Shown in pieces: positions 1,277 to 57,909 of a stretch of DNA of 60,244 nt. Positions within the stretch are counted from its first letter, which is position 1, and every line of letters starts with the position of its first letter. Under the pieces are notes generated by a model. The model was not told the origin of the DNA, made no database searches, and worked only from the letters and a program-made list of their open reading frames with translations. Position numbers and translations under genes: made by a program. This DNA comes from an uncultured virus (IMG/VR IMGVR_UViG_3300026522_000958) (Duplodnaviria; Heunggongvirae; Uroviricota; Caudoviricetes). The stretch lies in IMG/VR virus record IMGVR_UViG_3300026522_000958. The stretch is one strand, 5' to 3'.

Positions 1277-1379
1277 ATAGTGCTCCTTTCTCATATTTTC
1301 TGTGATGAATGATTGGTTATTACAGATTTGGGATAACGGCGGGGATGTGGTACGGTTAGCGAGGCATTTCTGTTTGTAC

Positions 1380-1409
1380 AAAAAAAGAGCCCGAAGGCTC
1401 TTTCTTTTT
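1380..1409 (-). terminator. intrinsic terminator
   Basis: AAAAAAAGAGCCCGAAGGCTCTTTCTTTT hairpin with A/T tracts. Confidence 0.65.
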
Positions 1410-1522
1410 AGAATATTAAGTTTTATTATGCAGCATCTGTATCCACTCCGGTCAGGTCTTCAACAGCCTGGATCTTTCCACGGCTTATGATCTTTCCCGG
1501 AAGGGAATCCGTGTCTGCTGTA

Positions 1523-1667
1523 ATTACGCGGTATCATAATGTACGTTTTTCGTACATTATCCATGTAACTGTAAAGGTGGTTTACACGAACAATAATGTA
1601 CGTTTTTAAGAAAACAACGGCTTTTTTGAAAAGTAGTTTACACGACTTATTTTGTACGTTTTTGTAC
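1523..1667. repeat. three imperfect direct repeats (56-57 bp period) with core TGTACGTTTTT; first copy lies in a perfect inverted repeat
   Basis: Core at 1540, 1597, 1653; TTTACACGA at 1581 and 1637; ATAATGTACG-TTTTT-CGTACATTAT at 1536-1560. Confidence 0.75.
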
Positions 1668-1698
1668 TTTTCTCAAAAAAATTTTTTTCTGTTACCGT

Positions 1699-3930
1699 TC
1701 ACATGTCAATGCTGGTAGCGATTTCCGGGGTTGCAACATGGAGCACGCGGTCGCGTATCTCCTCCGTACGTCCCTGGTTCCAGTACTGGGATCCGATATA
1801 ACCGCATGTACGTCTTGCGACACTCATCATGTCCTGGTTACGGTTTCCACAGTTTGGACACTCCCACACAAGTTTGTGGGTCTTCTCGTCGCGGACAGTG
1901 CGGATTTCTCCATCATACCCGCACTTCATGCAGTAGTCGCTCTTTGTATTGAGTTCAGCATACATGATGTTCTCATAGATAAATTTCATTATCGAAAGAA
2001 CTGCGGATATGTTACTCTGCAGGTTCGGAACCTCTACATATGAGATCGCTCCGCCTGGAGAAAGCTTCTGGAACTCAGATTCAAATCCGAGTTTATCAAA
2101 AGCGTTGATGTTCTCACGGACATTTACATGGTAACTGTTCGTGATATAATCATGATCCGTTACGCCCGGGATGACGCCGAATCTCTTCTGCAGGCCTTTG
2201 GCAAATGTATAAGTAGTGCTTTCCATCGGGGTGCCGTATACCGAGTATGCGATGTTTTCAGCATCACGCCATTCCTTGCACTTGTCGTTCATATGCTGCA
2301 TTACTGCAAGTGCAAACGGCTTTGCTTTAGGATCTGTATGGCTCTTTCCCGTCATTTCAAGACAGCACTCGTACAGTCCACCATATCCGAGAGATATTGT
2401 CGAATAACCGCCGTAAAGTAGCTTATCGATTGTCTCACCCTTCTTTAAGCGGGCAAGAGCACCGTACTGCCAGAGAATAGGAGCTACATCGGACTTTGTC
2501 CCAAGAAGTCTCTTGTGGCGGATCTGGAGTGCCCTATGGCACATTTCCAGACGCTCATCGAAAATCTTCCAGAACTCATCGAACCTGTCAGTCCCGTTTT
2601 CTTCTGAAGCTTTTACGGCAGAGCATGCTACGTCAACGAGGTTTACAGAACATACGCCCTGATTGAAGCGGCCGTAGAACTTGTGACTGCCATCCGGATT
2701 CCTTACAGAATCTTCGACTGTCAGGAACGACCTGCATCCCATGCAGGTATAGACATCGCCCTTTACTTCGCGCATCACCTTTGCACTGATGTAGTCCGGC
2801 ACCATCCTCTTCGCTGTGCATTTTGCTGCAAGCTCTGTAAGATAATAATATTTACTATCTTTATGGATGTTGTCCTCATCCAACACATAGATGATCTTTG
2901 GGAATGCGGGTGTGATGTATACACCTTTTTCGTTCTTAATGCCCTGTATCCTCTGGCGTAAGACTTCCTCAATGAGCATTGCAAGATCTTCTCTTGTCTG
3001 TCCCTCAGGAGCCTCATCAAGATACATATACATTGTGACGAATGGTGTCTGCCCATTACATGTCATCAGAGTCACCAACTGATACTGGATCGTCTGGATG
3101 CCATCCTTGACTTCTTCAGATAGGCGTTCTTTTACGAAATCATCTACCTTTTCAGGATTGATGATGCCCTCGCTTACGAATTTTTCCGCTTTTTTGTGGA
3201 GTTTCTGCCTTGACACATCCACAAATGGAGCAAGATGTGCAAGTGAAAACGACTGGCCACCGTACTGGTTTGACGCAACCTGTGCTACAATCTGAGTAGC
3301 CACATTTGCAGCCGTACGGAAACTCTTTGGCTTCTCGATCATTGTTCCCGTAATGACTGTTCCATTCTGGAGCATGTCTTCAAGATTAATCAGATCGCAG
3401 TTGTGCTCTCTCATGGCGAAATAATCCCTATCATGAATATGGATCAGTCCGTCCTTATGGGCCTGAACAAGCTCAGGAGGAAGCATAAGCCTGTCGGTAA
3501 GATCCTTTGATACCTCACCGGCCATGTAGTCCCTCTGGGTCGAGTTAATGTGAGCATTCTTGTTGGAATTCTCATCATTAGCTTCCTCGTTAACACCATT
3601 TATGATCTCCATAATGGTGTTATCTGTTTTTTTGTACATACGAAGCAGTTCATGATTGTTCCTGTATGTGGCATAGTTGATCGCGACTTCATAGCAGCGC
3701 ATCTCCATTATGCCTTTAATGACTCTGTCCTGGATCTTTTCCACATCGAGGGTGTCCTCGCCCTTTGCCTCCTTTGCCTCCTTTGCGATACTCTCAACAA
3801 TAGCTCTAATCTGGGCATCTGAGAGCTGGTAGATCGCGTCAACGGTTGCATTCGCTTTCTTTACGGCGTTGGCAACCTTTTCTCCGTCGAACGGCACTTC
3901 GGCGCCGTTCCTTTTCCTGATCATACACAT
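1699..3930 (-). CDS. nrdD: anaerobic (class III) ribonucleoside-triphosphate reductase with N-terminal ATP cone
   Basis: ATP cone (IRKRNGAEVPFD), HIHD, MGCRSFL, GRFNQGVCSVNL, CxxC pairs, glycyl radical loop RRTCGYIG. Confidence 0.97.
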   Translation of the reverse strand: MCMIRKRNGAEVPFDGEKVANAVKKANATVDAIYQLSDAQIRAIVESIAKEAKEAKGEDTLDVEKIQDRVIKGIMEMRCYEVAINYATYRNNHELLRMYKKTDNTIMEIINGVNEEANDENSNKNAHINSTQRDYMAGEVSKDLTDRLMLPPELVQAHKDGLIHIHDRDYFAMREHNCDLINLEDMLQNGTVITGTMIEKPKSFRTAANVATQIVAQVASNQYGGQSFSLAHLAPFVDVSRQKLHKKAEKFVSEGIINPEKVDDFVKERLSEEVKDGIQTIQYQLVTLMTCNGQTPFVTMYMYLDEAPEGQTREDLAMLIEEVLRQRIQGIKNEKGVYITPAFPKIIYVLDEDNIHKDSKYYYLTELAAKCTAKRMVPDYISAKVMREVKGDVYTCMGCRSFLTVEDSVRNPDGSHKFYGRFNQGVCSVNLVDVACSAVKASEENGTDRFDEFWKIFDERLEMCHRALQIRHKRLLGTKSDVAPILWQYGALARLKKGETIDKLLYGGYSTISLGYGGLYECCLEMTGKSHTDPKAKPFALAVMQHMNDKCKEWRDAENIAYSVYGTPMESTTYTFAKGLQKRFGVIPGVTDHDYITNSYHVNVRENINAFDKLGFESEFQKLSPGGAISYVEVPNLQSNISAVLSIMKFIYENIMYAELNTKSDYCMKCGYDGEIRTVRDEKTHKLVWECPNCGNRNQDMMSVARRTCGYIGSQYWNQGRTEEIRDRVLHVATPEIATSIDM

Positions 3931-4123
3931 AATATCATCCTTTCTATTCTGTTTTTCTCCAGAATTATGATTAACTTATAGTTGTATATAAGATTTGGGA
4001 GAAGATGCTATTGTCAACTCCTTCTTTGGATAAAACTGCCACAAAAAAAGAGTCCGAAGGCTCTTCAATGCTTGTTTTATCATACATCAGGGTTATTTTC
4101 TGTCATATACATTTTCCTCTCAT

Positions 4124-4169: not shown

Positions 4170-4363
4170 AACTGTGCATCTCTGGTTTGATTGTTATCTC
4201 CACAATACAGATATATGGTATCCCCCTCTTCCAATTCTGGAAAGATAACTACACGGAACAGCAAAAACGCATTCATTTTTCATATATGGAAAGTTCTGGT
4301 TTTCTATATATGAAAAATCGTAGATTCTGTTTCAACCATATCTGATTAGGACGTGCACGGCTT

Positions 4364-4516: not shown

Positions 4517-5254
4517 TTGAAAGGTAACAGCACAGTCATATTCGAGTATGAAAACATACTCATGGGGAAACAGCGGAACTTTAACTGTTCTTTTTCCGGT
4601 TCCGCTGAGAAGAGGCGGCAGGCAGTCGCGGAGATATGGCAGTATGCAGTACTCCATATCCTGCACTGGACTCCTGAAATGGCACTTAAGAACATGACGG
4701 TATCACTGATGAACAGTCTGTATCTTGACAGAACGCTCACACAGATAGATTCACCGTTTGTAAGGAAGAAACCCATAAACTTCAGGTACATCTTCAGCAT
4801 TGCCTTTCCAAAGCAGATCAGGTTCGATATCTTCAATGAGACGATCGACGCGTATAACAGGGTTCTGCACGTGGAAAAGTACAGTCATATGGAAGAACAA
4901 CAGCCGTACCATTTCCCAAAGTACTTCTTCACCGATGAGAACGGGGCGAAACGTGCATCGATATGCCTAAACTATGCGGTAAATCGTTTTCTGGGAGACA
5001 TGCCGGTCTCTGAAAGGTATGTATTTTTTTCAGACAGCACGAATGCAAATGCCTTTCTGAAACAGGCCATGATAGATTCCGTAGGGCGGCATATGTATGA
5101 TGCCCCTCTTGATTTCTACCACTTTTCGCTTCCTGAGGACGAGCGGGACTACCTGCTTTACTACAGCCTGAAGTTGTGGAACATTTTCAGAGCGAAGGAA
5201 CGTGATCTGTGCAGGAGGATGAAGAAAACTAAAAAGGTTAAACCTCGTGCATAA
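4517..5254 (+). CDS. hypothetical protein (weak resemblance to DUF4046-type repeats)
   Basis: 245-aa ORF, AGGAGG RBS before TTG, terminator downstream. Confidence 0.75.
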   Translation: MKGNSTVIFEYENILMGKQRNFNCSFSGSAEKRRQAVAEIWQYAVLHILHWTPEMALKNMTVSLMNSLYLDRTLTQIDSPFVRKKPINFRYIFSIAFPKQIRFDIFNETIDAYNRVLHVEKYSHMEEQQPYHFPKYFFTDENGAKRASICLNYAVNRFLGDMPVSERYVFFSDSTNANAFLKQAMIDSVGRHMYDAPLDFYHFSLPEDERDYLLYYSLKLWNIFRAKERDLCRRMKKTKKVKPRA

Positions 5255-5295: not shown

Positions 5296-5808
5296 TCAGT
5301 TTTTTGATACGAAGTCTAAGATCAGCTTCTGCTTTTCTTCAAGAGAGGCCTTTCTTATAAATTCTTCGTATGAACTGTACCTGTCTCCAATTCCAGCTCT
5401 TCTTTTCTTTCCTTCCGGAATAATGACTTCGAAATTTTTAAGGAACCGGTCAGATTCATCATCATCCATCATCTCTGAAAAGACGACTGCATCCTCGCGT
5501 TCCTGGTGTCTGACGATGTCTGCATAAGCATTCAGCTTCGCAGCTACAGCTTTTCTTAAACCACCACTGTATCTTCCGGCGATAAAGTCTTCTGCCACCT
5601 GTCTGAACTTGTCATCAGAATCGATGGTCAGATCAGACGGTTCAGGTACCGTCGAAGGCTTCAGGTCGGCTTCTTCCTTTCTGCTGACAGCATTGCCTGT
5701 AGACGCCATTATGATGTCACCGATGATCCCGGATATGCCCGGGATATTCTTCGCATCTTTTATGACGATCACAAGGTCGTCACCGTCAGCATATGTATAA
5801 CAGCTCAT
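5296..5808 (-). CDS. hypothetical protein, translationally coupled to the vWA gene
   Basis: 170-aa ORF overlapping upstream stop (ATGA). Confidence 0.8.
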   Translation of the reverse strand: MSCYTYADGDDLVIVIKDAKNIPGISGIIGDIIMASTGNAVSRKEEADLKPSTVPEPSDLTIDSDDKFRQVAEDFIAGRYSGGLRKAVAAKLNAYADIVRHQEREDAVVFSEMMDDDESDRFLKNFEVIIPEGKKRRAGIGDRYSSYEEFIRKASLEEKQKLILDFVSKN

Positions 5809-7958
5809 CTGAACTCCTTTTCTACTATTTTTCCGAGCCTCTTTATCAGCAAGTTCGAAAGGCCTTCCTCTTCAGTATGTATGAAATTTCTTCCGTACAT
5901 CTTCTGGAGAACATCAGCCTCGCAATCTCCAATTGCAATGCCTAAGACTGAGGCCTTTTTCTGTACAGCGGCTATCGCCCTTGTAGTAAGCTCAAGCCCT
6001 TCGTTATACGATCTGTACGCTCTTGCTGCAGGCGCACCGTCTGAGATAACGACAAGGAGTTTGTTCCTTGCCGCTCTCTTCTCAAGTGTTTCTCCTGCAT
6101 AACGGATCGAGTAGCTGTCGAAGTTGTCTGCGATAGCTCTCATTCCTGCAAGGGAAGTGTGCTGCTGCTTCGTGCTGTTCCACGTTACATAATGTAAATG
6201 GAGAGCATCGGTCGGGCCTTCATCAGCTGTAAAGCCCATTACATAATGAGGAATACCCATCTGCATAAGAGCTTCTGCAAAGATTATAGCAGTCTCTCTT
6301 GCGCGGCTTATCTTTGAACCGTACATTGAGCCTGACTGGTCCACAAGAAGGAATACTTCACAGTCTCTTTTAGAGCCAGGGTCTTTCCTCTTGTTGAAGA
6401 TCTTTGCTGATGTTCCGACTGATCCACGAAGGATATCATACGCACCTGTTGTGGCACGTCTTACTTCTTCCTGATCTGCAGCGAAACACTGCTCGAGACT
6501 TCTGACGAGGTGCTTGATCTTGCCCCTGTTGGCATTTACAATGCTATTGTACAAAGGGACGAGATCCTCACGGCTTTCTGCTTTCAGATTGCTGCATGTT
6601 GCAGCATTCTCAAGACCTGCCCCATGGACATCAACGTCCTGCGGCTGGTCTTCATAATTCTTTCGCTCTTCTTTTTCAATCTGCTTTGACGCATTATCAA
6701 GAGCATTGTCGAGCTGCTCCTTCTCTTCTTTTGAAAGAGTGTAGTTTTCGCTGTTATCGTCTGAAAGTAGTTTTTCAACTTCTTCTTTTGATAACGTGAG
6801 CGATCCTGCATCAGGGGCATCTCCGTTACCATCCCCGCCGACTTTTCCGTCATTGGAATAGGATTCGGGAGCTTCTCCGCCTTTGTCTTTCTTTGAAGAT
6901 GACTCTGAAGACGATGAAGACTTACTGCTATCTGCATCAGAGCTGCCAGCTTTTTCTCTGTCTCCATTTGCGGAAGATGAAGAACCTGGCTTTGCTTCCT
7001 CTTTATCAGATGTGGCCGATGCATTCTGTCCGTTGGAGTTTGCATCGTCAGAAGTGTCGTCATTCCCACCATTTTCAGAGGCTTCTTGTAAAAGCTTTTT
7101 GACAAGACTTTCGCGGCGCTTCTGTGCGCCGGTCTTTGGTCTGGATGGCTCGCTTTCACCTTCTGAATCTTCTGATCTTTCCTGATCATCCTGATCCTCT
7201 CCGGTAGAAGACGGATCCATTGCCTGCTGAAGAGCCTTTTTAAGCTCATCCATAAGCTTCTGGCGTTCCTTTTCATCCTCGAGGTCTCTCTCCCACAGAG
7301 GGCGGGCGATCTCCATTACCTCAAGAGCATAATCTGTACGCTTCTTTGAGTCTGTACATTCAATGCACTTGTTGTAGATCGGAGCAGCCTTTTTGAAGGC
7401 TTCTTCGGCTTCAGGAAATGTAAACTTTCCCTTTACGACTCCGAGATCCCCAAACTGGATGAGAGCATTCAGAAACTGTGCGTATGCTGTCGGGCTGTCC
7501 GTTATCTCAGGGCTTCCCATGTAGATGACCCTTACCGAAAAACGGAGTGCCTTTAGCAGGTATCCGCCTATTACGGAATCAGCCTGATACTCGATGCTCG
7601 GGTCCTCGATGCAGTTGAAGTTTTCGGAATAGATAGAAGCTTCAAATCTGTCAAACTCTTCAAGTTTCGCATAGAAAACAGCGAAGTTTGTAAGAGCCTG
7701 ATGGAGAAGTTCGTGAGCAAATACTCCGAAACGGAACATCCGCTTCTCTTCGTCCGTCATGACTTTTGTATACGGCTTGAAATCCCATGCCACATGGATG
7801 GTACGAGTATTTCCGTCCGTATATCCGAGGTCGTGATTGTTGTCTAGCCACTTTACTTTTACACGGATAGGCTTACCAGTCGTCCTTGACATAAAAGCTG
7901 ACGCCGTTCTGCTAAGAAGGACAGCTTCCGCTGCCCTTCCCTTAATTTCATCTGTCAT
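5805..7958 (-). CDS. CobT/NorD-like vWA domain protein with N-terminal HExxH motif
   Basis: FAHELLHQ, acidic low-complexity linker, MIDAS DQSGSM and ISDGAP; start reassigned to MTDEIK after GGAGG RBS. Confidence 0.85.
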   Translation of the reverse strand: MTDEIKGRAAEAVLLSRTASAFMSRTTGKPIRVKVKWLDNNHDLGYTDGNTRTIHVAWDFKPYTKVMTDEEKRMFRFGVFAHELLHQALTNFAVFYAKLEEFDRFEASIYSENFNCIEDPSIEYQADSVIGGYLLKALRFSVRVIYMGSPEITDSPTAYAQFLNALIQFGDLGVVKGKFTFPEAEEAFKKAAPIYNKCIECTDSKKRTDYALEVMEIARPLWERDLEDEKERQKLMDELKKALQQAMDPSSTGEDQDDQERSEDSEGESEPSRPKTGAQKRRESLVKKLLQEASENGGNDDTSDDANSNGQNASATSDKEEAKPGSSSSANGDREKAGSSDADSSKSSSSSESSSKKDKGGEAPESYSNDGKVGGDGNGDAPDAGSLTLSKEEVEKLLSDDNSENYTLSKEEKEQLDNALDNASKQIEKEERKNYEDQPQDVDVHGAGLENAATCSNLKAESREDLVPLYNSIVNANRGKIKHLVRSLEQCFAADQEEVRRATTGAYDILRGSVGTSAKIFNKRKDPGSKRDCEVFLLVDQSGSMYGSKISRARETAIIFAEALMQMGIPHYVMGFTADEGPTDALHLHYVTWNSTKQQHTSLAGMRAIADNFDSYSIRYAGETLEKRAARNKLLVVISDGAPAARAYRSYNEGLELTTRAIAAVQKKASVLGIAIGDCEADVLQKMYGRNFIHTEEEGLSNLLIKRLGKIVEKEFR

Positions 7959-8024
7959 ATTTTCTTCCTCCATCCCCGAAGGGGGCGCCCTGTATTGCGG
8001 CAGGGCTTTCATCAGTAAGTACCG

Positions 8025-9737: not shown

Positions 9738-9864
9738 ATGTTCCTCCATTTCCTTATCCTCCCTGCTTAAGAAGGATAAAATCTTAGATTGTGATGAATT
9801 GTTCTGTAGAAGATATGGGAGAACACTAAAAACCCCGTAAAAAACCCCGTCCAAACGGGCGGGG

Positions 9865-10416: not shown

Positions 10417-10578
10417 ATGTATCTCCTTTCTCATATATAGAAAAACGTGATGAATCCTTTTCATATATGAGATTTGGGATAAACAGATACGAATGAATGC
10501 GACGCAGAGTGCACAAAAAAAGGAGGCGGTACAGCCCGTCTCCTTAGTATTTTTTCATATATGGAAAATCAGACGGTA

Positions 10579-13077: not shown

Positions 13078-13167
13078 AATTCTGTCATCCTTTCTGAAAA
13101 CTGTGTGTAAGTAATTCACGCTGCTCCATAATGCAGATTTGGGAGAATGGCAGTCGGTGCGTAGTTT

Positions 13168-14354: not shown

Positions 14355-14521
14355 AAAACACCTCCGGGCAATTTCAGCTGTAACAGATGTGGCAGATTTC
14401 CTTATCTCGATTTTTCATATATGAGAAACCGTCAGAAGGGCACACATGCCGCTTTTCCCATATATAAAAAATGACCGCCACGGTCTCCCGTAGCAGCCAT
14501 CACTATGTCTGTTATTTGATA

Positions 14522-24080: not shown

Positions 24081-24311
24081 TTCCTCCTGTCAAAAGAAAA
24101 GGGTCTTCATGTGTCATGGGATGGCTTTGAATTTCAAAAACTCTAGGAGATCCCATAAGCGGAAGCACTGCCGCACCCCGCCTGATTCAGACTTGGGAGA
24201 TATTTATCACAGAACCGTTTATAAACTGTCTGTATTCTTTATTTTTCATATATGAAAAACCGGCACGGAAATCCGCACCGGTCAGTTTCTCATATATGAA
24301 ATTTGAGCCCC

Positions 24312-28296: not shown

Positions 28297-28498
28297 TAAA
28301 CCTGTCCTTTCCCGTGATCTGCCGCGAGCTGTCCCGCATTTTTACTTCTAAGATTTGGGATACGGGAAAATTTCACTGGTTTTTAGGCAAAACGGGTATC
28401 GTCAGGTGGTAGTTTTCATATATGAAAAATCAGGAATTTCTATATATGAAAAAGTATCTGCTCTGTTTCTGCCACATCTATACCGCCAGAAGGATATG

Positions 28499-29704: not shown

Positions 29705-29788
29705 GATTAGTTCCTCCTTATAGAACTGTGATAAAAATAATTGGTACACTTTAGTTATGGGAGAAAGGTCTTACTTTGGATGGAAAGC

Positions 29789-31982: not shown

Positions 31983-32158
31983 TTCTGAATAACCTCCTTT
32001 GATGAAGTAACACACAGTATCTATCGTCTGTGCACAATCTGTCAGGTTACATCAGATTTGGAAGAATATATCGGCTGGATGTCAGGAACAAGAATATCTA
32101 CGAAAGAGCCGACAGTCCGCTTCCGCAGCAGACCGCCGGTTCCCCAACTCTTCGATTT

Positions 32159-34224: not shown

Positions 34225-34374
34225 ACGCGATACTCCTTGGTAGTTTATTGTCAGCGCTTTAGATATGGCAGAGAACGTGGACAGAATTTTTCATATATGG
34301 AAAACTGCTGATTCCTCATATATGAAAAACATACTTGGCACAAAAAAAACACCGCCGAAGCGATGTTTTTTGAT

Positions 34375-36653: not shown

Positions 36654-36745
36654 ATTTTTACTCCTTTCTTCCCTTTCAGGGAAATATAATTGTGATGAAT
36701 AGTCTACATAGTAGATTTGGGAGAATACGATATAAATTAAAGCAT

Positions 36746-38472: not shown

Positions 38473-38701
38473 ATTGTGACTCCTTTCTTTTCCATATATG
38501 GAAAACTTAAAATGTGATAAATGTTTTGTATAAAAGATATGGGAGAATATGGGTACTCTCTCTTCTTTTCCACCTATAGGAAGTATCTGCATGCCGGATA
38601 ATAATATTACGGACATTTTCATATATGGAAAATGGATATCTCCACGGCATAAAAAAGGCCCGGTATTTACCGGGTCTTTAAGCAGAAAAATGGAGGGTTT
38701 A

Positions 38702-40039: not shown

Positions 40040-40068
40040 TTCTTCCTCCTTCCCTGCATAGGGAAAAC

Positions 40069-40281: not shown

Positions 40282-40384
40282 ATATTATCCTCCTTTTTCT
40301 GTGATGATGATGTTCTTTTAAAGATATGGGAGAAAATCAGATGCTTTAGTATCTGTATAGCAGAAAATACAATAATACACGCGC

Positions 40385-41592: not shown

Positions 41593-41720
41593 AAACGTTC
41601 TCCTTCTGCATCTTTATGATGCTTTCAGCCCTCTTGAGGCTCCATGCTTTTTCATAACATAGATTTGGGAGCGTATTTTTTCAGAACACTTCTGTACATC
41701 TTTTATATATGAGCCGGCTG

Positions 41721-43340: not shown

Positions 43341-43425
43341 TTTCCTGCCTTTCTGAACATAAAAAAGGCCGTCCGCATAAGCGGATGGCCTCATGTTCTA
43401 TTATTCAGATTTGGGAGATGCTGTA

Positions 43426-43704: not shown

Positions 43705-43991
43705 ATACTGGCTCCTTTCCGTACTTCTGTATGACTCCTTAAGTCGTTATAGATATGGATGTTTATGTTATTTCATTTTTTCATATATGGAGAACCAGAG
43801 ATCATCTATAAGTGTATTTACTGCATTACTCAGTTCTTCTTCTGTATGCTCATATCCGTTTCCTTTCTACACGTTGACTTCTATATCATCGATCATTATA
43901 CACTTTCCTCTTCGTTATAGATAGGGCAGATGGGCACATTCCGGTTTTCATATATAGAAAACCATAAGTGCGTATTCTCATCTGTCTGTGC

Positions 43992-48152: not shown

Positions 48153-48284
48153 TATATCTTCTCCTGTCCGGATGGCATAACGCCGCCCTTTTTATATGTT
48201 AGACTTGGAAGACTGCCCGACCATATTTTTTCATATATGAAAAAGAGCCCTTTGCCAGAGCTCTTTCCTTATCCCATGATAGTG

Positions 48285-49634: not shown

Positions 49635-49792
49635 AACTTTTCTCCTTTCATATCATATATGTATTGTGATGAATCGTTTTCATATATGAGATTTGGGAGA
49701 TTTGCAGGCCGGCTTGTCAGAACGGGATGATCCCGCAAAAAAGCACCCCGGTCTCCCGGAGTGCCATACGGTCTTTATGCTGTTTTTCGTGT

Positions 49793-50701: not shown

Positions 50702-50913
50702 TCTGTTATTCCTTACCGGAAAATCCGGCCCTTTCTCTTTTTATATATGAAATCTGTTGTCCTTGTATCTATCTTATCACTTGTGTACTAGATTTGGTAG
50801 ATATTAGGGCCGCATTTTTTCATATATGGAAAACTACGATTTTTCATATATGAAACTGTGGATGCGGGCACAAAAAAGACCGCGTTTGCCGCGGCCTTTG
50901 TCTTAGTGAAGCT

Positions 50914-51846
50914 TCAGATCTCGTCAAGGATTCCCGACTCGACAGCTTCGTCGATATCATCGTACGACAGCTGTGAAATAAGCTCGAAATCATCGTCATC
51001 AGAATCTCTTCCGGTGCCGTTGTACTTCTTTGTGAGCCTGTGCGTCGCAAGCTTTCTCTCAGCTGCATTTAAGCGTCTCATCACGTCATCCTGCGTTGGA
51101 CGCTTTTTCAACCCGTAATCCTTGTAATGATCATCTTTAAGGAGCATCTGGCATACTTTTTTTGACGACTTGCCGTTTACTCTCATCTCATAGATGATCA
51201 TCTGCTCGAGCTCTGAAAGGGATCTGAATATCATCATTCCAGTCTCTTTCTTTTCCTCTACGCAGACGATGTCTTCCGGTCCGTCGTGGTAAATGTCTTT
51301 AACCTCGTCATTTACATCGGCAAGCGACCAGTGCTGACCTGCAACGTAATTCTCACGTGCGGCCTGTACGGTAGATACGCTTTCGCCGGATATCATGGCG
51401 AGCTGTGCATCAGTGAGCTCGATATCATCGATCCCATCAAAGCCTGCCTTTATTGCTGCCTTATTGAGACGGCTTATGGCACCGATATAGTAGGTGCTGA
51501 TGTCGCCTCTGCACATATCCCTGTGCGCTTCATTGATGTAGCGCAGGAAAAATGTTGATGGCATCGTGCCTCTTGTCGGGTCGTAGTCCGACAGATGCTC
51601 GAGCACCTGTGCCTGAGCTTCAACGATCAGATCGTCGTATTCCGCATTCATCGTGCGGTTATACTTTTTAATCAGATCCTTTACTAGATGCTGCAGTGCT
51701 CTCCAGATAACATAAAAATAGTCATCTCTGGACACTGAGCCGTTTTTGAATCCTGTATATGCTTCAAGTATACGCTCGGGTTCTGATTTCTTCTCATTTT
51801 TATAGGCCTGAGTCAGCCTTTTGGGGATCTTTGTGTCTGCTCCCAT
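50914..51846 (-). CDS. divergent sigma-70-family RNA polymerase sigma factor
   Basis: Region 2-like YDDLIVEAQAQVLEHLSDYDPTRGTMPSTFFLRYI, region 3 HTH and WSLAD, region 4-like LSELEQMII. Confidence 0.78.
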   Translation of the reverse strand: MGADTKIPKRLTQAYKNEKKSEPERILEAYTGFKNGSVSRDDYFYVIWRALQHLVKDLIKKYNRTMNAEYDDLIVEAQAQVLEHLSDYDPTRGTMPSTFFLRYINEAHRDMCRGDISTYYIGAISRLNKAAIKAGFDGIDDIELTDAQLAMISGESVSTVQAARENYVAGQHWSLADVNDEVKDIYHDGPEDIVCVEEKKETGMMIFRSLSELEQMIIYEMRVNGKSSKKVCQMLLKDDHYKDYGLKKRPTQDDVMRRLNAAERKLATHRLTKKYNGTGRDSDDDDFELISQLSYDDIDEAVESGILDEI

Positions 51847-52015
51847 GAATATTTCCTCCTTTTCTCATATATAGTTCCAGGGCTTCTGCCAGAGGTACGT
51901 CAGCCTTTACGGCCTCAATAGCCTCGACCCGCCTGACTGCTTCGTCAAAACCGCACTGCTTTATGTTGTGCCGGTTATAGCAGTCCCACGAGGAGGAAAA
52001 TTCTTTCTGCTTCAT
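51800..52015 (-). CDS. small hypothetical protein upstream of and overlapping the sigma gene
   Basis: AGGAGG RBS before MKQKEF. Confidence 0.55.
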   Translation of the reverse strand: MKQKEFSSSWDCYNRHNIKQCGFDEAVRRVEAIEAVKADVPLAEALELYMRKGGNIHGSRHKDPQKADSGL

Positions 52016-52224
52016 TTTCTGCCTCCTTTTGTCCTGATGAATCATGTTGCACCAAAGACTTGGGAGATATTCATGTTCTGGGAATGGACCGATCTGACGG
52101 TCTGATGACTTTTTTCGTGTACCAATATATCTTCTGCCACGATCCCCTGGCCGGGATCCGGCGGACGGCTGTGCCGTCTTATTGCTGATCTATACATAAG
52201 CACTTTTTAGAACTTACATTCTTT

Positions 52225-52252
52225 ATTATATCATCTTTACAGGAAACTTCAA
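52225..52252 (-). promoter_or_regulatory. host sigma-A-type promoter facing the sigma factor operon
   Basis: TTGAAG-N16-TATAAT with extended TG. Confidence 0.65.
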
Positions 52253-52280
52253 GTATTTTGTTAAGATTTTGTTACACATT

Positions 52281-52578: not shown

Positions 52579-53535
52579 CTTAATCGTCATATCGTCCTGT
52601 AAGTATCCGTCCTGTACAAGCATCTCCTGCATTACACTCACATCAGACGAGGTATCAATCTCATCGTCATAAAACAGATCATCGTATATCTGTGCGAGGG
52701 CCTTGTTTATCATGTCAAGCGACCTTTGTATATCCTTCTTCTGTTTTTCAATGCTTTCATTTTCTTCGCAGCCAGCAAATTCAGTGTACTTTGTGAGGAG
52801 ATTTTCAAGTGTCGGCAGGTAATACCGTTTCATACGGCTCATCTGCCCTGCTTTTTCGTGATGGCGTTCAGTCTCTTCTGTTATCTGCGTAAGCCTGTCA
52901 ATTAAGATATCAAGGGCATTGGTCATATCCTTATCGAAGATTTCTTCTCTTAGTCTTTCGAACCTGCTGATGTAACCGTGCAGCTCTTTGTCCTTTATAA
53001 CCGTACCGGGAAGCCCTTTTGACCCTGCCTTTCCGGTATCGATGCGGTCCGGTTCTTTTTCCATCTGGTCTTTATCTTTCCTTTCATCAAGAAGAAAGCT
53101 TAAGACTGTCAATGTTATTCCGCTGCCCAAAAGCAGGTGACCTATTACTGAGATTACTCCACTGACGAAAGAGCATATGATTCCGCTATATATCATCATA
53201 GTAAAGAATATCATACTGTTTTCGTCACGTATCAGGTCAGGCAGCGGCATCGGAGGTTTTTCAAATGATTCTTCCTTTTCTTCGAAAGACAGCCCGCATC
53301 TGTATTCTTCCGGCAGGGTATAATCATCTGCTGACCTGTCGTTTATGCATACATCACTGTTCCTGCTGATCATGCTTTCGATCATCTGCGCAAGATCGTT
53401 TTCGTACACGGAAGGAACGGAGATATTAGAGCCATCATAATGCTTTATGAACTTTATGAGTTCGTCTGATACTTCCTGTGCCGTTCTAGGGTTTTCTTTT
53501 TCAGGATAATATATGCTTACTGCTGCGGCTTCCAC
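52525..53535 (-). CDS. XpaC-like (5-bromo-4-chloroindolyl phosphate hydrolysis family) membrane protein; C-terminus supplied by mini-IS
   Basis: Two TMs, YYLPTLENLLTKY, SDVSVMQEML..DG. Confidence 0.75.
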   Translation of the reverse strand: MEAAAVSIYYPEKENPRTAQEVSDELIKFIKHYDGSNISVPSVYENDLAQMIESMISRNSDVCINDRSADDYTLPEEYRCGLSFEEKEESFEKPPMPLPDLIRDENSMIFFTMMIYSGIICSFVSGVISVIGHLLLGSGITLTVLSFLLDERKDKDQMEKEPDRIDTGKAGSKGLPGTVIKDKELHGYISRFERLREEIFDKDMTNALDILIDRLTQITEETERHHEKAGQMSRMKRYYLPTLENLLTKYTEFAGCEENESIEKQKKDIQRSLDMINKALAQIYDDLFYDDEIDTSSDVSVMQEMLVQDGYLQDDMTIKKSGGNSREQVPEMKARK

Positions 53536-53993
53536 GAGAGCCAGGCCTCCTTCCTATCATTATAGATAATATCCATTATGTCTGTTTCGCTGCTGATACC
53601 GGAAATGACCTTTATGGATTCGTCCGATGTCAGCCTTTCTACGACATCGTCTATGATCTTCTTTATGAAGATCTTTTTTTTTATGTGAAAGTCTTTTTCA
53701 AGCGCCCTTGCAGTACTCAGAATATTGCGCGATCTTACAGGCCGCATGGCAGAAGATGAGTTTTCCTGATCTTTATATAGATTAAACGGTACATATACCC
53801 CAAGTATTACCTTATGCCACGAGAATCCGATGGAACACATGCCATGCCCTTTTCCGTATCTGACTGCATCTTTAAAATGTCCAAGTATGTCGTCTTCAAA
53901 CATGATCGTGATTTTTTCCAGAAAATCCGTATGTTCAAGTATCACGGCCTTTGCAACGTCGATCTTATCCGGGGTTTCCTTACTGTTCTTCAT
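53517..53993 (-). CDS. hypothetical protein
   Basis: 158-aa ORF overlapping both neighbours in an operon. Confidence 0.7.
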   Translation of the reverse strand: MKNSKETPDKIDVAKAVILEHTDFLEKITIMFEDDILGHFKDAVRYGKGHGMCSIGFSWHKVILGVYVPFNLYKDQENSSSAMRPVRSRNILSTARALEKDFHIKKKIFIKKIIDDVVERLTSDESIKVISGISSETDIMDIIYNDRKEAWLSWKPQQ

Positions 53994-55827
53994 ATATATC
54001 CTTCTCTTGTCTGTTGATCTCTGTTATCCTGATGCCTGATGCTTTTACCGCTTCATCCGTGTCAGGATGTGATACCGATGCTATGAACACATTGTCGTAG
54101 TCTTCCCCACATACCGTAAGTATCGAAAGGAATTCCCTGAATGTCTCCGCATCCATCACGGACATTTCGTCAAGAAGTATGATCTTTGCTCCGCAGAGAT
54201 CGTTTAAAAGGCTTATCATCATGTAAAGGAAAAACGCCTTCTCGCCTCCCGAAAGGGATGCGTAATCAAGAAGGTCACCGGCTCTGTTGGTCATCTTTAC
54301 GACTACGCCGTTGTCATATCCGAACATGAACTTAAACGGCACATCTCTCGACTCGCACTTATCATTACAGAAGTCCTCGAATGTTCCCAGATAACCCGAC
54401 AGGACGCCCTTTCTTACTACTCCGCCGTCCTGCACGGCCTTTACGAGTGCTTCGTAAGAGACCAGCAGTTCCTTATCTTTTTCGAGCTTTGCCCGGGTGT
54501 CGAATGACTTCTTTTTCTCTTCAAGGATAGACATCTGCTTCCTTATGTCGGCGACGGCATCCTTATGGTCGGGTTTCTTTACTTCTGCCGGCTTTTCAGG
54601 GAGTTTCAGTTCTGATGTCTCAAGCCCCTTTATCTCACGCTCTATCCTTACCTTCCCGTTATACTTTTTCTCTTCTGCTGCATACTTCTCGGCTTCGGCA
54701 TAGAGTTCTTTTCTTCTCTTGTCTGCCTTGAATATCTCGTCTTCAAGCTTCTTCATGCTCTCTGACATATCTTGTACCGACTTTTCGATCTCTTTCTTTG
54801 CCGGACCCTTGTTTTCATGACAGGTAATGAGAGGACTTATCGGGCATACCGGCTTGTCAAGGGCTTCGAGCGTCTTTTCAAGCTGCTCCTTTCCTTCTTT
54901 CATCGATCTGTATGCAGCCCTGTTATTTGCTATGGTCTCTCCTGCCTGATCATATTCTTTCCGGATGCGGGCCTTTACTTCAATATCAGGGGCCGTTACA
55001 TCTGCATACTTTTCCAGTTCTGCTTTCAGTTCTTTAATCCTGTCCTGCTGCTTTCCGACTGCAGCGGCCATCCTGTTATACGAATCGACCTTTTGCAGGT
55101 AGAGACTGTACGCAGTATCCTCTTTGTTGAACTCGTCGAGACGGGAGTTATATTCTTCTTTCTGTCTGCTGTAGCTTTCAGGATCCACGGCCGGCGGCAG
55201 AGTCTTCAACAGTGCTTCGCTCTCCTTTATGCGCGCTTTGAGGTCTTTCCTCTCGCCCTTTAAGAGTACTTCCAGTTCATCGAGCGAGTCGATATCGATA
55301 TCATCTTCAGGCAGGTCGTCATCAAGGACAGCCGACATCCCATCTGTGATGCCCGGGATAAAATTCTTTATGTCGTCACGTGTCATTTTCTTCGGGATGT
55401 ATGAGAGGATAAACTTTCCAAATTCCTTCGGTTTCATGGCTGCCACAAGATCCTGTGATGATACAGTCTTTACCTTATCGAGCGGAAGGCCCGTAAAGCG
55501 TTCGAGCATTTCGTTTAAAGCTTTGCCCGTGATCTTATTGTCTTCATAATAGCACGAGTCTGTTTTATCCCTCTCGGAGTGTCTTCTGAAGTCTGCTGTC
55601 TCTCCCGACGCATTCTCTATGACCATCCTGACGTCTGCCGACTGCGACCCTCTGTTTATCATCTCTCCAGCCGGCTTAATGCCTGTAAGAGCGTATCTTA
55701 TGGCAGACAGGACTGAAGTCTTTCCCGTGCCGTTAGATGACGACAGGAGCGTTATCTTTTCAGGCTTTACTGTCAGCTCGTCCTTTATACCCATGAACCC
55801 TGATATGGTTATCTTTTTTATCTTCAT
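53980..55827 (-). CDS. SMC/Rad50(SbcC)-like ABC ATPase
   Basis: NGTGKTS, coiled coils with central CPISPLITC, LSGGE, ILLDE, terminal SH. Confidence 0.9.
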   Translation of the reverse strand: MKIKKITISGFMGIKDELTVKPEKITLLSSSNGTGKTSVLSAIRYALTGIKPAGEMINRGSQSADVRMVIENASGETADFRRHSERDKTDSCYYEDNKITGKALNEMLERFTGLPLDKVKTVSSQDLVAAMKPKEFGKFILSYIPKKMTRDDIKNFIPGITDGMSAVLDDDLPEDDIDIDSLDELEVLLKGERKDLKARIKESEALLKTLPPAVDPESYSRQKEEYNSRLDEFNKEDTAYSLYLQKVDSYNRMAAAVGKQQDRIKELKAELEKYADVTAPDIEVKARIRKEYDQAGETIANNRAAYRSMKEGKEQLEKTLEALDKPVCPISPLITCHENKGPAKKEIEKSVQDMSESMKKLEDEIFKADKRRKELYAEAEKYAAEEKKYNGKVRIEREIKGLETSELKLPEKPAEVKKPDHKDAVADIRKQMSILEEKKKSFDTRAKLEKDKELLVSYEALVKAVQDGGVVRKGVLSGYLGTFEDFCNDKCESRDVPFKFMFGYDNGVVVKMTNRAGDLLDYASLSGGEKAFFLYMMISLLNDLCGAKIILLDEMSVMDAETFREFLSILTVCGEDYDNVFIASVSHPDTDEAVKASGIRITEINRQEKDIYEEQ

Positions 55828-56076
55828 CTGCTGCTCCTTTTCTGTCTGCCCTATTCTTCACCCTGCTGTTTGTGGTGCTGGTTATCCCTGTAATCTTCTC
55901 TGTACCGGTACGCTCCGACTTTATTTCACTATCTGTGGCTAGATATGGCAGATAGGGATCCTGCAATTTTTCATATATGGAAAATGAGGGCTGCGTCATT
56001 ACCCTTCTTCTGCCAATTCTCATATATAACGATTTATCATAAATTTTATCCGATTTTATCGGGAAAGGAGATCTTT

Positions 56077-56724
56077 ATGTCAGATATTATCAAAGGCGGA
56101 CAGATAGTCATATTCGACAGATACAGCACTTACGCAGGGAAGCTATATCAGGCAGTAATCGTAAAACCTAATGTGTATTATCACGGCGGAAAATACTGCC
56201 TCATGCAGGGGCAGTCACTCTTCTGGGCACCTTATCCTGAAAAAAAATTCTGGGATAAGGATAGGGTATGCTGTCCGTTCGCAGGTGGCAACATGCTTTA
56301 CAGGCTGGATGGGATATTTGATTCCAGCCCAAAGGCGATGAAATTCCTAGATATGTTCGGTTACCTGATGCCGGATGAGGATTACAGGCTGTTCCTTCCG
56401 AACGGTGCGATGCTCCAGGACTATCCCGAGATAAAGCAGGCCATGCAGGATGAGATAACCGAAAATGTAGGATATCTTTATCTCACATCATACGGGGATT
56501 ATGTATCCTACTGCAGCACGAGCGGCACCGAGGAGTTTATAAGCTATAAAGAGAGTATGTTTACCGCACTAGGATTTGCTCCCGTCTTTCTCATCGACGA
56601 GCAGGCCGTAAAGAAGGCCGAAAAGGATATACATGGACGCCCCGTGATCAGCCCCGTGATCAGCCCCGTGATCAGGGAATGGCGTGCACGCTCTTTGGAC
56701 TCACTGTTCTCATGTCTCGCCTGA
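56077..56724 (+). CDS. hypothetical protein
   Basis: Start MSDIIK after GAAAGGAG; inverted promoter box at 56009. Confidence 0.75.
   Translation: MSDIIKGGQIVIFDRYSTYAGKLYQAVIVKPNVYYHGGKYCLMQGQSLFWAPYPEKKFWDKDRVCCPFAGGNMLYRLDGIFDSSPKAMKFLDMFGYLMPDEDYRLFLPNGAMLQDYPEIKQAMQDEITENVGYLYLTSYGDYVSYCSTSGTEEFISYKESMFTALGFAPVFLIDEQAVKKAEKDIHGRPVISPVISPVIREWRARSLDSLFSCLA
56641..56675. repeat. 12-bp tandem repeat x3 (PVIS)
   Basis: CCCGTGATCAGC repeated. Confidence 0.9.
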
Positions 56725-56735
56725 ATCTGTACAGC

Positions 56736-56766
56736 AAAAAAAGACCGGAATATATCCGGTCTTTTT
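56736..56766. terminator. bidirectional intrinsic terminator
   Basis: AAAAAAAGACCGGAATATATCCGGTCTTTTT between convergent genes. Confidence 0.8.
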
Positions 56767-56767
56767 A

Positions 56768-57832
56768 TTATGCTATTTTTGCGAGAAGCACGTCTGCTGC
56801 CGTGCCGTCGTTTCTTACGCAGATGTCTGCAAGAGCGGCATTTTTTCTTTCAGTCTCAAGAGATAAAAGCCTTAACGTCTTTTCAGTATCCGATAATCCT
56901 TTATCCGAAATGATCGCTGCGATGAGCTTTTCTCTGTTCTTATCGACATATATGATGACTGTAGGGAAATGATGCTTCATCCCTATAGCTCCGCACATAT
57001 CAAGAGCAAGTACCGCATTGTTTCCGGCATCGAGGATCGCCCTTACATCCTTTTCAGATGTCCCGTAGGCATATCCGCCGTAACGGGTCTTTTCGAGGAA
57101 ATCCTCCTTCAGGAACTCTTCTTCCGTGATAGTCGTCTTTCCCGCTACGCCGGGTTTTGTAGTGTAGCTTTCCGGTCTCACGAATGAGTGGTCCCTGGAG
57201 ATGAGGTCATCGATCACTTCATTCTTGCCTGATCCCGAAGGACCTACAAATGCAAGAACTGTCGGCACCTTTATCTCCTTTTCTCTCTGTCCGTTCGATA
57301 TGCGGATGATATGTCTTGTAAGACATAAGAATTCTGACATATCGTTTACAGAGAGGATCCCTGTCATGTCTTTATTCCACGGGCGCCTCATCAGCACAGG
57401 ATATGTGGCCGGACTTGACAGAACATTGTTGATGTTGTCGTCAAGCAGCACATCGAAATGCACGAGATCCTTTGCGGCGCCTAAGATGATATGGCTTTCA
57501 GGCAGCTCCGGGAATGCTTCCATGATCTGCTTTGCCCTTACGCCCATCATGTCAGGGTACACGGCGGTGATCACATATACATCGGCGATCTCCATGAGGC
57601 GTGCCATGACCTTCTTCACAAGGTCTGTCACCCCTGTCCGGCTCTGCTCCCTGTACAGGATCTCTTCGTGATAAAGTTCCTTGATCACGGACGCTCTCCC
57701 TGTATTCTCCCAGGAAGCGATATCCTCCGTGGTGAGCGGCGGTTCGATCCCGTATCTCTCCGTAGCTATCCTGCAGGCAATACTGTTGAAGTGGGCGAGT
57801 GTATCGTCCCAGTCTATTCCGATCTTTAACAT
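56768..57832 (-). CDS. fusion of 5'(3')-deoxyribonucleotidase (HAD) and guanylate-kinase-like domain
   Basis: IDWDDTL, LLDDN, RPWN; then GPSGSGKN, SYTTKP, YGGYAYGT. Confidence 0.85.
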   Translation of the reverse strand: MLKIGIDWDDTLAHFNSIACRIATERYGIEPPLTTEDIASWENTGRASVIKELYHEEILYREQSRTGVTDLVKKVMARLMEIADVYVITAVYPDMMGVRAKQIMEAFPELPESHIILGAAKDLVHFDVLLDDNINNVLSSPATYPVLMRRPWNKDMTGILSVNDMSEFLCLTRHIIRISNGQREKEIKVPTVLAFVGPSGSGKNEVIDDLISRDHSFVRPESYTTKPGVAGKTTITEEEFLKEDFLEKTRYGGYAYGTSEKDVRAILDAGNNAVLALDMCGAIGMKHHFPTVIIYVDKNREKLIAAIISDKGLSDTEKTLRLLSLETERKNAALADICVRNDGTAADVLLAKIA

Positions 57833-57909
57833 AATATTCTCCTTTCTCATATATGAAAACGTGATAAATCATTGTTATCAGAGATTTGGGAGAATATGCA
57901 GTTTTTCTG

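Follow-up and report, generated by a model that had tools for sequence, protein, structure and literature searches.

A recurrent 12-nt sequence as a probable promoter element in a conjugative element of the livestock gut, with a sigma-70-family protein as its candidate reader

The DNA analysed here is a stretch of 60,244 nucleotides (IMG/VR record IMGVR_UViG_3300026522_000958), referred to throughout as the window, and the subject of this work is a short asymmetric sequence, box 1 (TCTSCCAWATCT), that recurs in its intergenic regions, together with the factors that could read it, of which a sigma-70-family protein encoded in the window is the best candidate. Judged from its transfer and replication gene content, the window is part of a conjugative plasmid or of an integrative and conjugative element (ICE) with phage-like replication genes. 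The same DNA is carried by cattle and pig gut sequencing runs from nine studies, four of these runs being metatranscriptomes.

Genes of the window and the distribution of box 1

The minus strand holds almost all genes of the window. The type IV secretion set includes a VirB4/TraG-type ATPase (19559-22132) and a coupling protein (24312-26873), with PrgI, TrbL/VirB6 and an NlpC/P60 giant protein as further transfer genes; the type IV secretion gene row runs from 24080 down to 19232 on the minus strand. Replication is represented by DNA polymerase III alpha (43992-48152), a primase-helicase (57910-59979), a primase-like gene (48285-49634), SSB, an Erf-like annealing protein and an exonuclease, and nucleotide metabolism by NrdD (1699-3930) and an NT5C-guanylate kinase fusion (56768-57850). 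Approximately half of the open reading frames (ORFs) in the window, including most of the large ones, match no family, and no phage structural genes were seen in it. The window is open at both ends, and the element extends past it.

Box 1 occurs in 11 exact copies, all on the minus strand, where 0.08 would be expected, and none of 100 shuffles reached this number. Allowing up to one mismatch yields 26 matches (1.66 expected), and up to two mismatches 54 (23.2 expected). Twenty-four of the 26 sites are wholly non-coding, being confined to the 11.7% of the window that lies outside the refined list of coding sequences (binomial P ~1e-20), and every one of these 24 is oriented towards the next gene; the other two, at 4632 (minus strand) and 54761 (plus strand), fall inside genes and are probably chance matches. 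Once the intergenic two-mismatch boxes at 4227 (plus), 4332 (plus) and 48201 (minus) are counted, the total reaches 27 sites, to which a degenerate 28th box at 43751 can be added. Plus-strand boxes precede all three plus-strand genes that do not belong to an insertion sequence (IS): 4332 and 4227 stand before 4517-5254, 28468 before 28540-29292, and 56009 before 56077-56724. The notion that these three genes could be paralogous regulators was discarded, as they are mutually unrelated.

Seventeen of the 27 boxes lie 40-71 nt upstream of a start codon with a Shine-Dalgarno sequence, as placed by script; for box 13135 a distance of 58 nt from the start codon was assigned by hand, and the other nine stand at 30-307 nt. 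A terminator-like hairpin often precedes box 1. The first-pass annotation of this DNA had described about 27 copies of the box, upstream of and co-oriented with genes, which change strand before the three plus-strand genes (4332, 28468, 56009), and all of this was recovered here, the figure of 27 including the three intergenic two-mismatch boxes. Its view of the box as a promoter element is likewise upheld by the co-orientation, by the preceding terminator-like hairpins, and by RNA-library contigs from two studies that start 17-28 nt downstream, and we consider it highly probable that box 1 is a promoter element.

A second sequence, box 2 (ATTYATCACA), is barely enriched when taken alone, with 19 matches at up to one mismatch against 10.6 expected, a number reached by 2 of 100 shuffles. 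Eight of the 19, however, lie 11-14 nt after a box 1 (1301, 9790, 10446, 36691, 38513, 49665, 56032 and 57860), and a ninth site, 40300, carries the variant CATCATCACA, which accounts for all nine places where a second box at this distance had previously been named. Weaker copies are found behind the boxes at 52056 (ATTCATCAGG) and 29753 (TTTTATCACA, at 17 nt).

Transcript ends and promoter anatomy

The RNA evidence consists of assembled contigs, rather than reads, from four RNA runs that represent two samples (X3 and X7; X4 and X6) and two studies; contigs were placed on positions 38050-58000, and 32 of the 173 pieces were listed. Being both long and free of errors, with up to 2429 nt and 0 other letters, they show that the element was present in those samples. 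At 8 of the 13 boxes examined, contigs from the four runs start 17-28 nt downstream of box 1, several of them with adapter-like sequence, which suggests that the box marks transcript starts. The two studies place their contig ends within 1-5 nt of each other at five sites.

The distances are remarkably alike from box to box when the most upstream ends are compared. At box 38535 the contig end lies at 38516 and at box 48201 the single end lies at 48182, both 19 nt past box 1, while box 57882 shows ends at 57864 (two runs, one with adapter) and 57844, that is, 18 and 38 nt past box 1. On the plus strand, box 56009 is followed by ends at 56039 (adapter), 56043 (adapter) and 56044, at 19-24 nt, and in one run by an end at 56161, at 141 nt. 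Box 49689 is followed by ends at 49669, 49668, 49659 and 49612 (20-77 nt), and box 50790 by ends at 50762 and 50745 (28 and 45 nt). At box 40322 the ends are 40300 (adapter) and 40305 (adapter, with one mismatch, and probably 40301), nominally 17-22 nt past box 1, with further ends at 40290 and 40073 (32 and 249 nt); the most upstream end was taken as 21 nt past box 1. Finally, box 41661, which has no box 2, gives ends at 41644, 41642 and 41639, 17-22 nt past box 1, and as the distance is the same in the absence of box 2, it would be box 1 that sets the start. Among the pieces listed, boxes 43407 and 55941 show no RNA contig end.

Adapter-like loose ends were found at 40300, 40305, 57864, 56039 and 56043, and the loose letters are presumably of Illumina type. 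One adapter type occurs at the gene-5' end of minus-strand and plus-strand units alike, and the other type at the 3' end. A correspondence between adapter type and gene strand is the signature of a stranded library, and the side on which the adapters lie thus indicates that the contig ends are ends of RNA-derived fragments. The opposite ends of the contigs fall at 50899-50901, just before a hairpin at 50894-50880, and at 38679-38697, just before a hairpin at 38674-38659; contigs that begin after a box and stop at terminator hairpins point to separate units composed of box, gene or genes, and terminator. Coincident stops from two studies were by themselves graded as a weak hint, distinct from start-site mapping, and were weighted somewhat above this level in view of the adapters, of how many sites are involved and of the constancy of the distance.

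The contiguous DNA is very unevenly covered by the RNA contigs. Their word depth is 15-200 for units with box 2 and mostly 0-21 for units that lack it, those with a class B box (see below) among them, a difference that was not used as evidence; contig depth cannot rank genes, and the near-zero cover of 42046-42711 and 52702-56031 is not evidence of silence. Contigs in three runs also contain joints, 45509>45706 and 52299>52554, which skip 196 and 254 nt; because their shorter side is only 20-21 letters long, these are probably artefacts that represent repeats or foreign sequence rather than splicing.

The same contig ends could be produced at the RNA level, if a few ordinary promoters gave rise to long transcripts that a site-specific RNase then cleaved at box 2, with box 1 as part of its recognition site or as a leader motif. 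The clustering of ends at positions 6-10 of box 2 at four sites would be expected of such cleavage, as would the tight packing of genes on one strand and an X3 contig that extends through box 2 into box 1. The terminator-like hairpins that precede many boxes, and at which contigs stop, argue instead for separate units; in addition, 41661 shows the same end distance without a box 2, stable pairing between box 1 and box 2 is not evident by eye, and the box flips with divergent genes that have their own intergenic region. Processing is thus held to be quite improbable, and the contig ends are treated below as approximations of transcript starts.

When the sites are aligned on box 1, the only conserved positions downstream are a T and an A at the fifth and sixth positions (0.44 and 0.77 bits), followed by an A-rich run, while alignment on box 2 yields the pattern aaA..ATTcATCACa. 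With the common 12-nt spacer, both alignments give one weak hexamer, TAnnAA, 5-10 nt after box 1 and 6-8 nt before the A of the 'YA' step in box 2 (ATTYA). This hexamer lacks a T at -7, an A being present there in at least 9 of 11 sites. A start at the A of 'YA' would correspond to the 16th-19th nucleotide past box 1, depending on spacer length (the 17th with a 12-nt spacer), and would lie 1-6 nt upstream of the observed RNA ends; site 41661 obeys the same rule via its TATGAA. The best reading of the layout places box 1 at approximately -29 to -18, TAnnAA at -12 to -7 and box 2 at -4 to +6.

In this layout box 2 belongs to the start region. RNA contigs end at positions 6-10 of box 2 at sites 38535, 40322, 49689, 56009 and 57882; the RNA includes the 3' half of box 2, which therefore cannot be a -10 element upstream of the start, and a role as -10 was discarded on these grounds. 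At 40322 and 52056, moreover, the Shine-Dalgarno sequence would be truncated if transcription began 7 nt beyond box 2. The -35/-10 reading of boxes 1 and 2 that was implied by the first-pass annotation consequently does not stand, in view of the RNA ends inside box 2 and of a box 1 that is 6-10 bp too near the start, while its side remark that box 2 could mark the start site rather than a -10 agrees with the RNA ends.

Box 1, in turn, does not occupy the place of a -35 element. A canonical -35 hexamer ends about 29 nt before the start, whereas at seven of eight sites no more than 17-21 nt separate the end of box 1 from the most upstream RNA ends, a soft margin given that the starts are deduced from contigs. 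The end of box 1 also lies only 4 nt before the fixed-register TA, compared with the 16-18 nt that separate -35 and -10 in promoters of sigma-70 type. In no reading of the RNA ends is box 1 at -35, and loss of the start in the libraries would put it even closer to the start. A sigma-54-like -24/-12 promoter was rejected, since the GG/GC is missing and the candidate protein is of sigma-70 type. The earlier statement that the box resembles no sigma-A promoter holds both locally and across the window: even when 8 of 12 matches suffice, no sigma-A hexamer pair is consistently placed at the 27 boxes, and sigma-A-like sites are not enriched window-wide (20, 26 and 30 against 30.6, 27.0 and 30.0 expected; 76 against about 88 in all). 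Terminator-like sites are enriched (35, 31 and 26 against 19.1, 18.9 and 17.8 expected).

The extent of the conserved region, from about -29 to +6, evokes a different type of enzyme, since conservation of the start region is the norm with phage-type polymerases but uncommon in sigma promoters. An initiation factor or polymerase outside the sigma-70 family, encoded by one of the family-less ORFs or outside the window, could read from box 1 to the start region, for which box 2 is strongly conserved, in the manner of phage single-subunit or non-canonical polymerases; the prevalence of family-less products among the large ORFs and the open ends of the window leave room for such a protein. A rigid promoter bound by a single protein would nevertheless not tolerate a spacer of 11-14 nt between the boxes, and 41661 starts at the same distance without a box 2. 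No polymerase-like Pfam match was found, nor a DxDGD-type motif in the large family-less ORFs; a YonO-like or other polymerase among them was set aside on the lack of this motif, and Atlas was empty for the 832-aa ORF. Such a reader is considered improbable.

Two promoter classes and a shared palindrome

Judged by sequence, the sites fall into two promoter classes that the earlier annotation had not separated. Class A comprises 16 boxes with C at position 4 (TCTCCCAWATCT) and holds 10 of the 11 copies of box 2; none of the 16 has a palindrome at a fixed upstream distance. Class B comprises nine boxes with G, A or T at position 4, in which the core of the palindrome TTTTCATATATGAAAA starts exactly 26 nt upstream of the box (once 25). 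Three sites, 4227 (plus), 32054 and 56009 (plus), remain unclassed, their position 4 being T or G and the palindrome missing from the fixed distance; the last of these carries the eleventh copy of box 2. With its core CATATATG, the palindrome occurs in 23 copies in the window, against 0.93 expected, for example at 10462, 24247, 28417, 34292, 48232, 50821 and 55972. The core CATATATG directly follows box 1 at 10470, 49689 and 56009, and lies in the leader at 38535, 57882, 10470, 49689 and 28468. A second, dimeric regulator of the whole element probably uses the palindrome as its operator; no candidate protein for its binding was found in the window.

Plasmid-wide operators near most promoters are well known, as exemplified by KorA and KorB of IncP plasmids, and box 1 itself could be a repressor operator, or another DNA-level signal, next to ordinary promoters that have escaped recognition. 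The element does possess a motif of this kind, in the form of the 23 palindromic copies of CATATATG. Box 1 has other properties: it is asymmetric, co-oriented with genes at 24 of 24 sites and separated from the RNA ends by a fixed 17-21 nt, and no ordinary promoter consensus is found beside it. An operator role for box 1 is consequently the least probable of the explanations weighed here. The likeness to KorA and KorB, in which a single short motif recurs ahead of operons for replication, transfer and maintenance, applies best to the palindrome, whereas box 1, oriented and at a fixed distance from RNA ends, differs from Kor operators, which are palindromic repressor sites at variable distances.

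On the minus strand, complete class A promoters with both boxes stand at 1301..1335, before a 50-aa ORF with start at 1276 (box 1 TATCCCAAATCT at 1324-1335, a 13-nt spacer and box 2 ATTCATCACA at 1301-1310); at 9790..9822, before an AAA_5 ATPase gene with start at 9749 (exact box 1, 11-nt spacer, ATTCATCACA); at 10446..10481 (box 1 TATCCCAAATCT, with CATATATG directly after it and then box 2 ATTCATCACG); at 36691..36724, before a 68-aa ORF (exact box 1, 12-nt spacer, ATTCATCACA); at 38513..38546 (exact box 1, 12-nt spacer, ATTTATCACA); at 40300..40333 (exact box 1, then CATCATCACA); at 49665..49700 (exact box 1, then CATATATG, then box 2); and at 57860..57893 (exact box 1, 12-nt spacer, ATTTATCACG). 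Exact class A boxes also occur at 3991..4002, where box 2 is not clear, 60 nt before the NrdD start at 3930, and at 13135..13146, before the 832-aa ORF. Further minus-strand boxes are found at 24189..24200 (TCTCCCAAGTCT), heading the type IV secretion gene row; at 28351..28362 (TATCCCAAATCT), before a 468-aa ORF and the coupling-protein gene; at 29727..29764 (TCTCCCATAACT, with a 17-nt spacer and TTTTATCACA), before a SpoVG-like gene; at 32054..32065 (TCTTCCAAATCT), before a 696-aa ORF with start at 31982; at 41661..41672 (GCTCCCAAATCT, without box 2); at 43407..43418 (exact, followed by a terminator-like hairpin); and at 52033..52067 (TCTCCCAAGTCT, with a 13-nt spacer and ATTCATCAGG), 40 nt before a 71-aa ORF and the sigma gene.

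Class B modules on the plus strand lie at 4305..4343, before gene 4517-5254 (palindrome core TATATATG at 4305-4312 and box TCAACCATATCT at 4332-4343), and at 28441..28479, before gene 28540-29292. Those on the minus strand lie at 14385..14423 (palindrome core at 14416-14423, box TCTGCCACATCT at 14385-14396); 34261..34299; 43751..43789, with the degenerate box ACATCCATATCT; 43919..43956, with box TCTGCCCTATCT and a TATAAT 18 nt past it; 48201..48239, before the DNA polymerase III alpha gene; 50790..50828, before a NERD-domain gene; and 55941..55979, before an SMC/AAA_15-like ATPase gene. The unclassed plus-strand sites are a box 1 variant, TCTTCCAATTCT, at 4227..4238, upstream of gene 4517-5254, and the promoter at 56009..56041, in which box 1 TCTGCCAATTCT and box 2 ATTTATCATA are separated by an 11-nt spacer.

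Several features that adjoin these sites deserve mention in their own right. The class A promoter at 9811 heads a MoxR-VWA-like pair (5805-9881, minus strand), in which a protein with CobT-C and VWA domains adjoins the dynein-type AAA_5 ATPase. ORF 41721-43394 (minus strand), whose likely start codon is separated from box 43407 by the terminator-like hairpin, has an N-terminal match to a bacterial CdiA-CT RNase A domain (Pfam PF18431, 3.5e-7). The HEARO RNA (Rfam RF02033) has two full matches of 122 and 118 bits, at 19004-19228 and 33998-34224, and a third, partial related copy at 59975-60199, all on the minus strand. All three terminate in a conserved hairpin of 51 nt that is immediately followed by the start of one of three unrelated genes, encoding the NlpC/P60 giant protein, a 102-aa product and the primase-helicase, and one copy has a class B box upstream of it, the end of the box at 34261..34299 lying 37 nt before the start of the match at 34224. 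No IscB/HNH-type ORF was detected in the window. The IS200/IS605-type pair consists of a Y1 transposase (2-502, minus strand; Pfam 4e-33) and an ORF with a TnpB-like N-terminal domain (573-974, plus strand); neither gene has a box 1, and the transposase has a sigma-A-like promoter of its own, TTGACT-17-TATGAT, at 555-527 by coordinates. Finally, a 13-mer, CCGAGTAGTTCAC, is present in three exact copies against 0.03 expected, all on the minus strand (29789-29801, 40385-40397 and 52281-52293), each just after a stop codon or at the end of a putative small RNA.

The sigma-70-family protein and candidate readers of box 1

The divergent sigma-70 protein that had been reported at 50914-51846 corresponds to a real ORF on the minus strand, the product of which, P0001 (310 aa), matches Pfam Sigma70_r2 (PF04542) with 27.6 bits against a cut-off of 24; region 2, which serves in core binding and in recognition of the -10, is also recognized in 36 of 46 aligned relatives. 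Positions 49-267 of its family profile align to residues 195-411 of Thermus SigA, covering regions 2-4 (E 2e-8). The AlphaFold2 (AF2) model, with a pLDDT of 87.9, displays helical domains at 22-133, 146-170 and 190-267, and its best Foldseek matches are full-length sigma B, S, A and 32, with 260-300 aligned columns for sigma B, S and A. Pfam region 4 is found in 2 of the 46 relatives and not in P0001, and a conserved C-terminal helix past region 4 is common to the family. On the strength of profile and model, P0001 is a genuine three-domain relative of sigma-70. Atlas places it among Bacillota sigma clusters, and 1.84 billion cluster representatives include 147 relatives at E <=1e-3 and eight at E <=1e-30, almost all of which stem from uncultured gut assemblies (Logan, ENA), with one from a Candidatus Weimeria metagenome-assembled genome (MAG).

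A tblastn search of P0001 against 72,556 plasmid records returned nothing even at E = 1, a search of phage, viral-contig and genome-contig collections gave no match, and the same was true in viral contigs for its relatives P0004 and P0005 and for the DNA polymerase III alpha protein. Megablast of positions 48000-56000 against the plasmid collection gave no match, the polymerase III alpha protein reached at best 35% identity or less in plasmids (e.g. a Ruminococcus albus megaplasmid), and the sigma family alignment matched 0 of 400 genomes from the phylum of an unrelated Bacilli MAG.

Directly upstream of the sigma gene, and overlapping it, lies a 71-aa ORF that belongs to no known family (51800..52015, minus strand) and is present in the same RNA-library contigs. 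Upstream of this unit stands a near-perfect sigma-A-like promoter, TTGAAG-16-TGaTATAAT (52225..52252, minus strand). The RNA contigs of the unit span 50899-52203, and their upstream ends, at 52189-52203, lie beyond box 52056 and about 22 nt past this promoter. Transcription of the sigma unit starts either from the TATAAT promoter, for which a start at about 52218 is expected and the contigs would be 15-29 nt short, or from a weaker TAAGTT at 52216-52211, for which the ends are exact. Further upstream, the intergenic region 52281-52447 (minus strand) is covered by RNA-library contigs with a word depth of up to 781, which branch into other sequences at 52279, 52352, 52406 and 52532; close by is a sigma-A-like site (52482-52454), and Rfam gave no match. 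The region may encode an abundant small structured RNA that is partly shared with other sequences in the samples.

The sigma factor P0001 is our tentative choice of reader for box 1, held at somewhat less than even confidence: the protein is complete, it is present in long, error-free RNA-library contigs, and its operon is laid out like that of an autoregulated mobile-element sigma factor, while terminators are enriched in the window and sigma-A-type promoters are not. In this model box 1 would be the upstream core of a promoter class private to the conjugative element, followed by four variable bases, a weak TAnnAA in fixed register, and a start 17-21 nt after box 1; in its strongest version the start would fall inside box 2 (ATTYA|TCACA), probably at the A of 'YA', so that box 2 would be a start-region and leader element rather than a -10. 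Host RNA polymerase would first transcribe the sigma gene from the sigma-A-like upstream promoter that has no box, and the sigma factor would then drive the box promoters, including that of its own operon, in a feed-forward loop. A second factor, bound to the palindrome TTTTCATATATGAAAA, may modulate both classes, its site lying 26 nt upstream of box 1 in class B and, in several promoters of class A, overlapping the leader or the -10 region.

Several observations weigh against this model. An X3 contig reaches 57892, and thus runs through box 2 and 11 bases of box 1; a single X6 contig crosses the boxes at 43407, 43751 and 43919; and all four RNA runs read through box 52056, with no contig end there among the pieces listed. 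Strand and exact 5' ends are derived from assembled contigs rather than from reads, and if the TATAAT promoter of the sigma unit is the one in use, with contigs 15-29 nt short, the starts at the box promoters could be nearer to box 1. Furthermore, the element runs beyond the window, and another reader may be encoded outside it. Lastly, the position of box 1 fits no described region 4 contact of a sigma-70 relative, and suits activators that replace the -35 contact about as well.

Such an activator, made by the element, would bind box 1 and recruit host polymerase with sigma-A or another host sigma to the weak TAnnAA, in which case the element's sigma factor would serve a smaller set of genes or none of the box promoters. 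It is the position of box 1, at -29 to -18, that speaks for it: the MotA boxes of phage T4 have their centre near -30 and the PafBC sites of mycobacteria directly adjoin the -10, a placement that differs from that of sigma region 4 contacts. The 12 conserved bp also exceed the typical length of a -35 element, and the TA in fixed register past box 1 is what would be expected of a -10 read by a standard region 2. Sigma-A, nevertheless, requires a T at -7, where TAnnAA has an A in at least 9 of 11 sites, and box 1 is asymmetric, without the repeat structure typical of dimeric activators. Among 50 plus 20 ORFs of the window scanned with four libraries, the only ones with a recognizable transcription or DNA-binding domain are the sigma factor and the SpoVG-like protein (29357-29749), most ORFs being family-less; SpoVG proteins bind DNA and RNA. 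An activator as reader therefore appears doubtful, if well ahead of the remaining alternatives. Should the sigma factor P0001 be the reader after all, its family may use a sigma-70 geometry that has not been described, with a 12-bp element at -29 to -18, a degenerate -10 without T at -7, and a conserved start region. We regard this as unlikely; if true, either region 4 would have to be repositioned or the DNA would be read by a new surface of the protein, for which the conserved C-terminal helix is a possible candidate.

Mobile elements that encode a sigma factor with a private regulon are an already known kind, and both a plasmid and phages provide examples. Phage sigma cascades, such as those of gp28 and gp33/34 in Bacillus phage SPO1, redirect the host core polymerase after the first sigma gene has been read by the host sigma factor. 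The present promoters may be similarly private and resemble no host consensus, but those of SPO1 keep their -35 and -10 blocks, and the element described here is conjugative (VirB4, coupling protein, PrgI, TrbL). In phage T4 middle promoters (MotA box with AsiA) and in the 'sigma adaptation' by mycobacterial PafBC, an activator replaces the -35. The likeness to these, a conserved asymmetric element between -35 and -18 next to a -10, is one of position only, although this position fits box 1 better than that of a -35 does; the -10-like hexamer here differs from theirs in lacking the T at -7, and no MotA-, AsiA- or PafBC-like protein was detected in the scan of 50 plus 20 window ORFs with four libraries.

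The closest plasmid parallel is SigN (ZpdN) of the Bacillus subtilis plasmid pBS32, a plasmid-encoded sigma factor whose promoters are essentially restricted to the plasmid, and whose gene has been shown experimentally to possess housekeeping-type and SigN-type promoters that create positive feedback (PMC6751061). Similarly, a host-type promoter (52252-52225) and a box (52056-52067) both precede the sigma operon described here, as sequence elements. The differences are threefold: P0001 has no sequence similarity to SigN detectable by tblastn of plasmid records; SigN promoters have ordinary -35 and -10 elements, to judge by an example row of Table 2 in the same source (PMC6751061), whereas the 12-mer lies approximately 6-10 bp too near the start; and dependence on the sigma factor has been proven for SigN promoters, whereas the pairing of box and sigma factor here is a candidate one.

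The motif itself may be private to the element. The joined pattern of box 1, 11-14 nt and box 2 gave only isolated, chance-like matches, eight in 596 billion bases (one genome per species, 185,579 species), seven in JGI metagenome contigs and one in IMG/VR, none of which is related to the window by blastn or tblastn; the class B pattern gave 0 matches in IMG/VR, and the 12-mer alone is too short for scans of such collections. Searches of literature full text with the motif strings returned only unrelated primer-type matches, and the portion available of the Butyrivibrio megaplasmid paper (PMC2914790) makes no mention of a shared intergenic motif. What is new, therefore, is the motif, an uncharacterized sigma family of uncultured gut Firmicutes, a two-class architecture with a palindromic co-regulator and, above all, a conserved 12-mer situated between the canonical positions of -35 and -10.

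Elements with their own promoter code could express their genes independently of host promoter rules and switch them as a block; in the present case, replication, transfer and nucleotide genes would run on a channel orthogonal to host promoters. To our knowledge, few plasmid cases have been worked out (pBS32 SigN being one), and none from the anaerobic gut Firmicutes that dominate livestock microbiomes. The element described here is transcribed in rumen-type metatranscriptomes, and its two classes of box provide approximately 27 natural promoter variants, alongside a candidate reader. Should that reader prove to be the sigma factor, the system could provide a compact orthogonal means of expression for gut anaerobes that are hard to engineer, and the odd position of box 1 would bear on how sigma factors contact DNA; if the reader is an activator, it would represent a new case of -35 replacement outside phages and actinobacteria.

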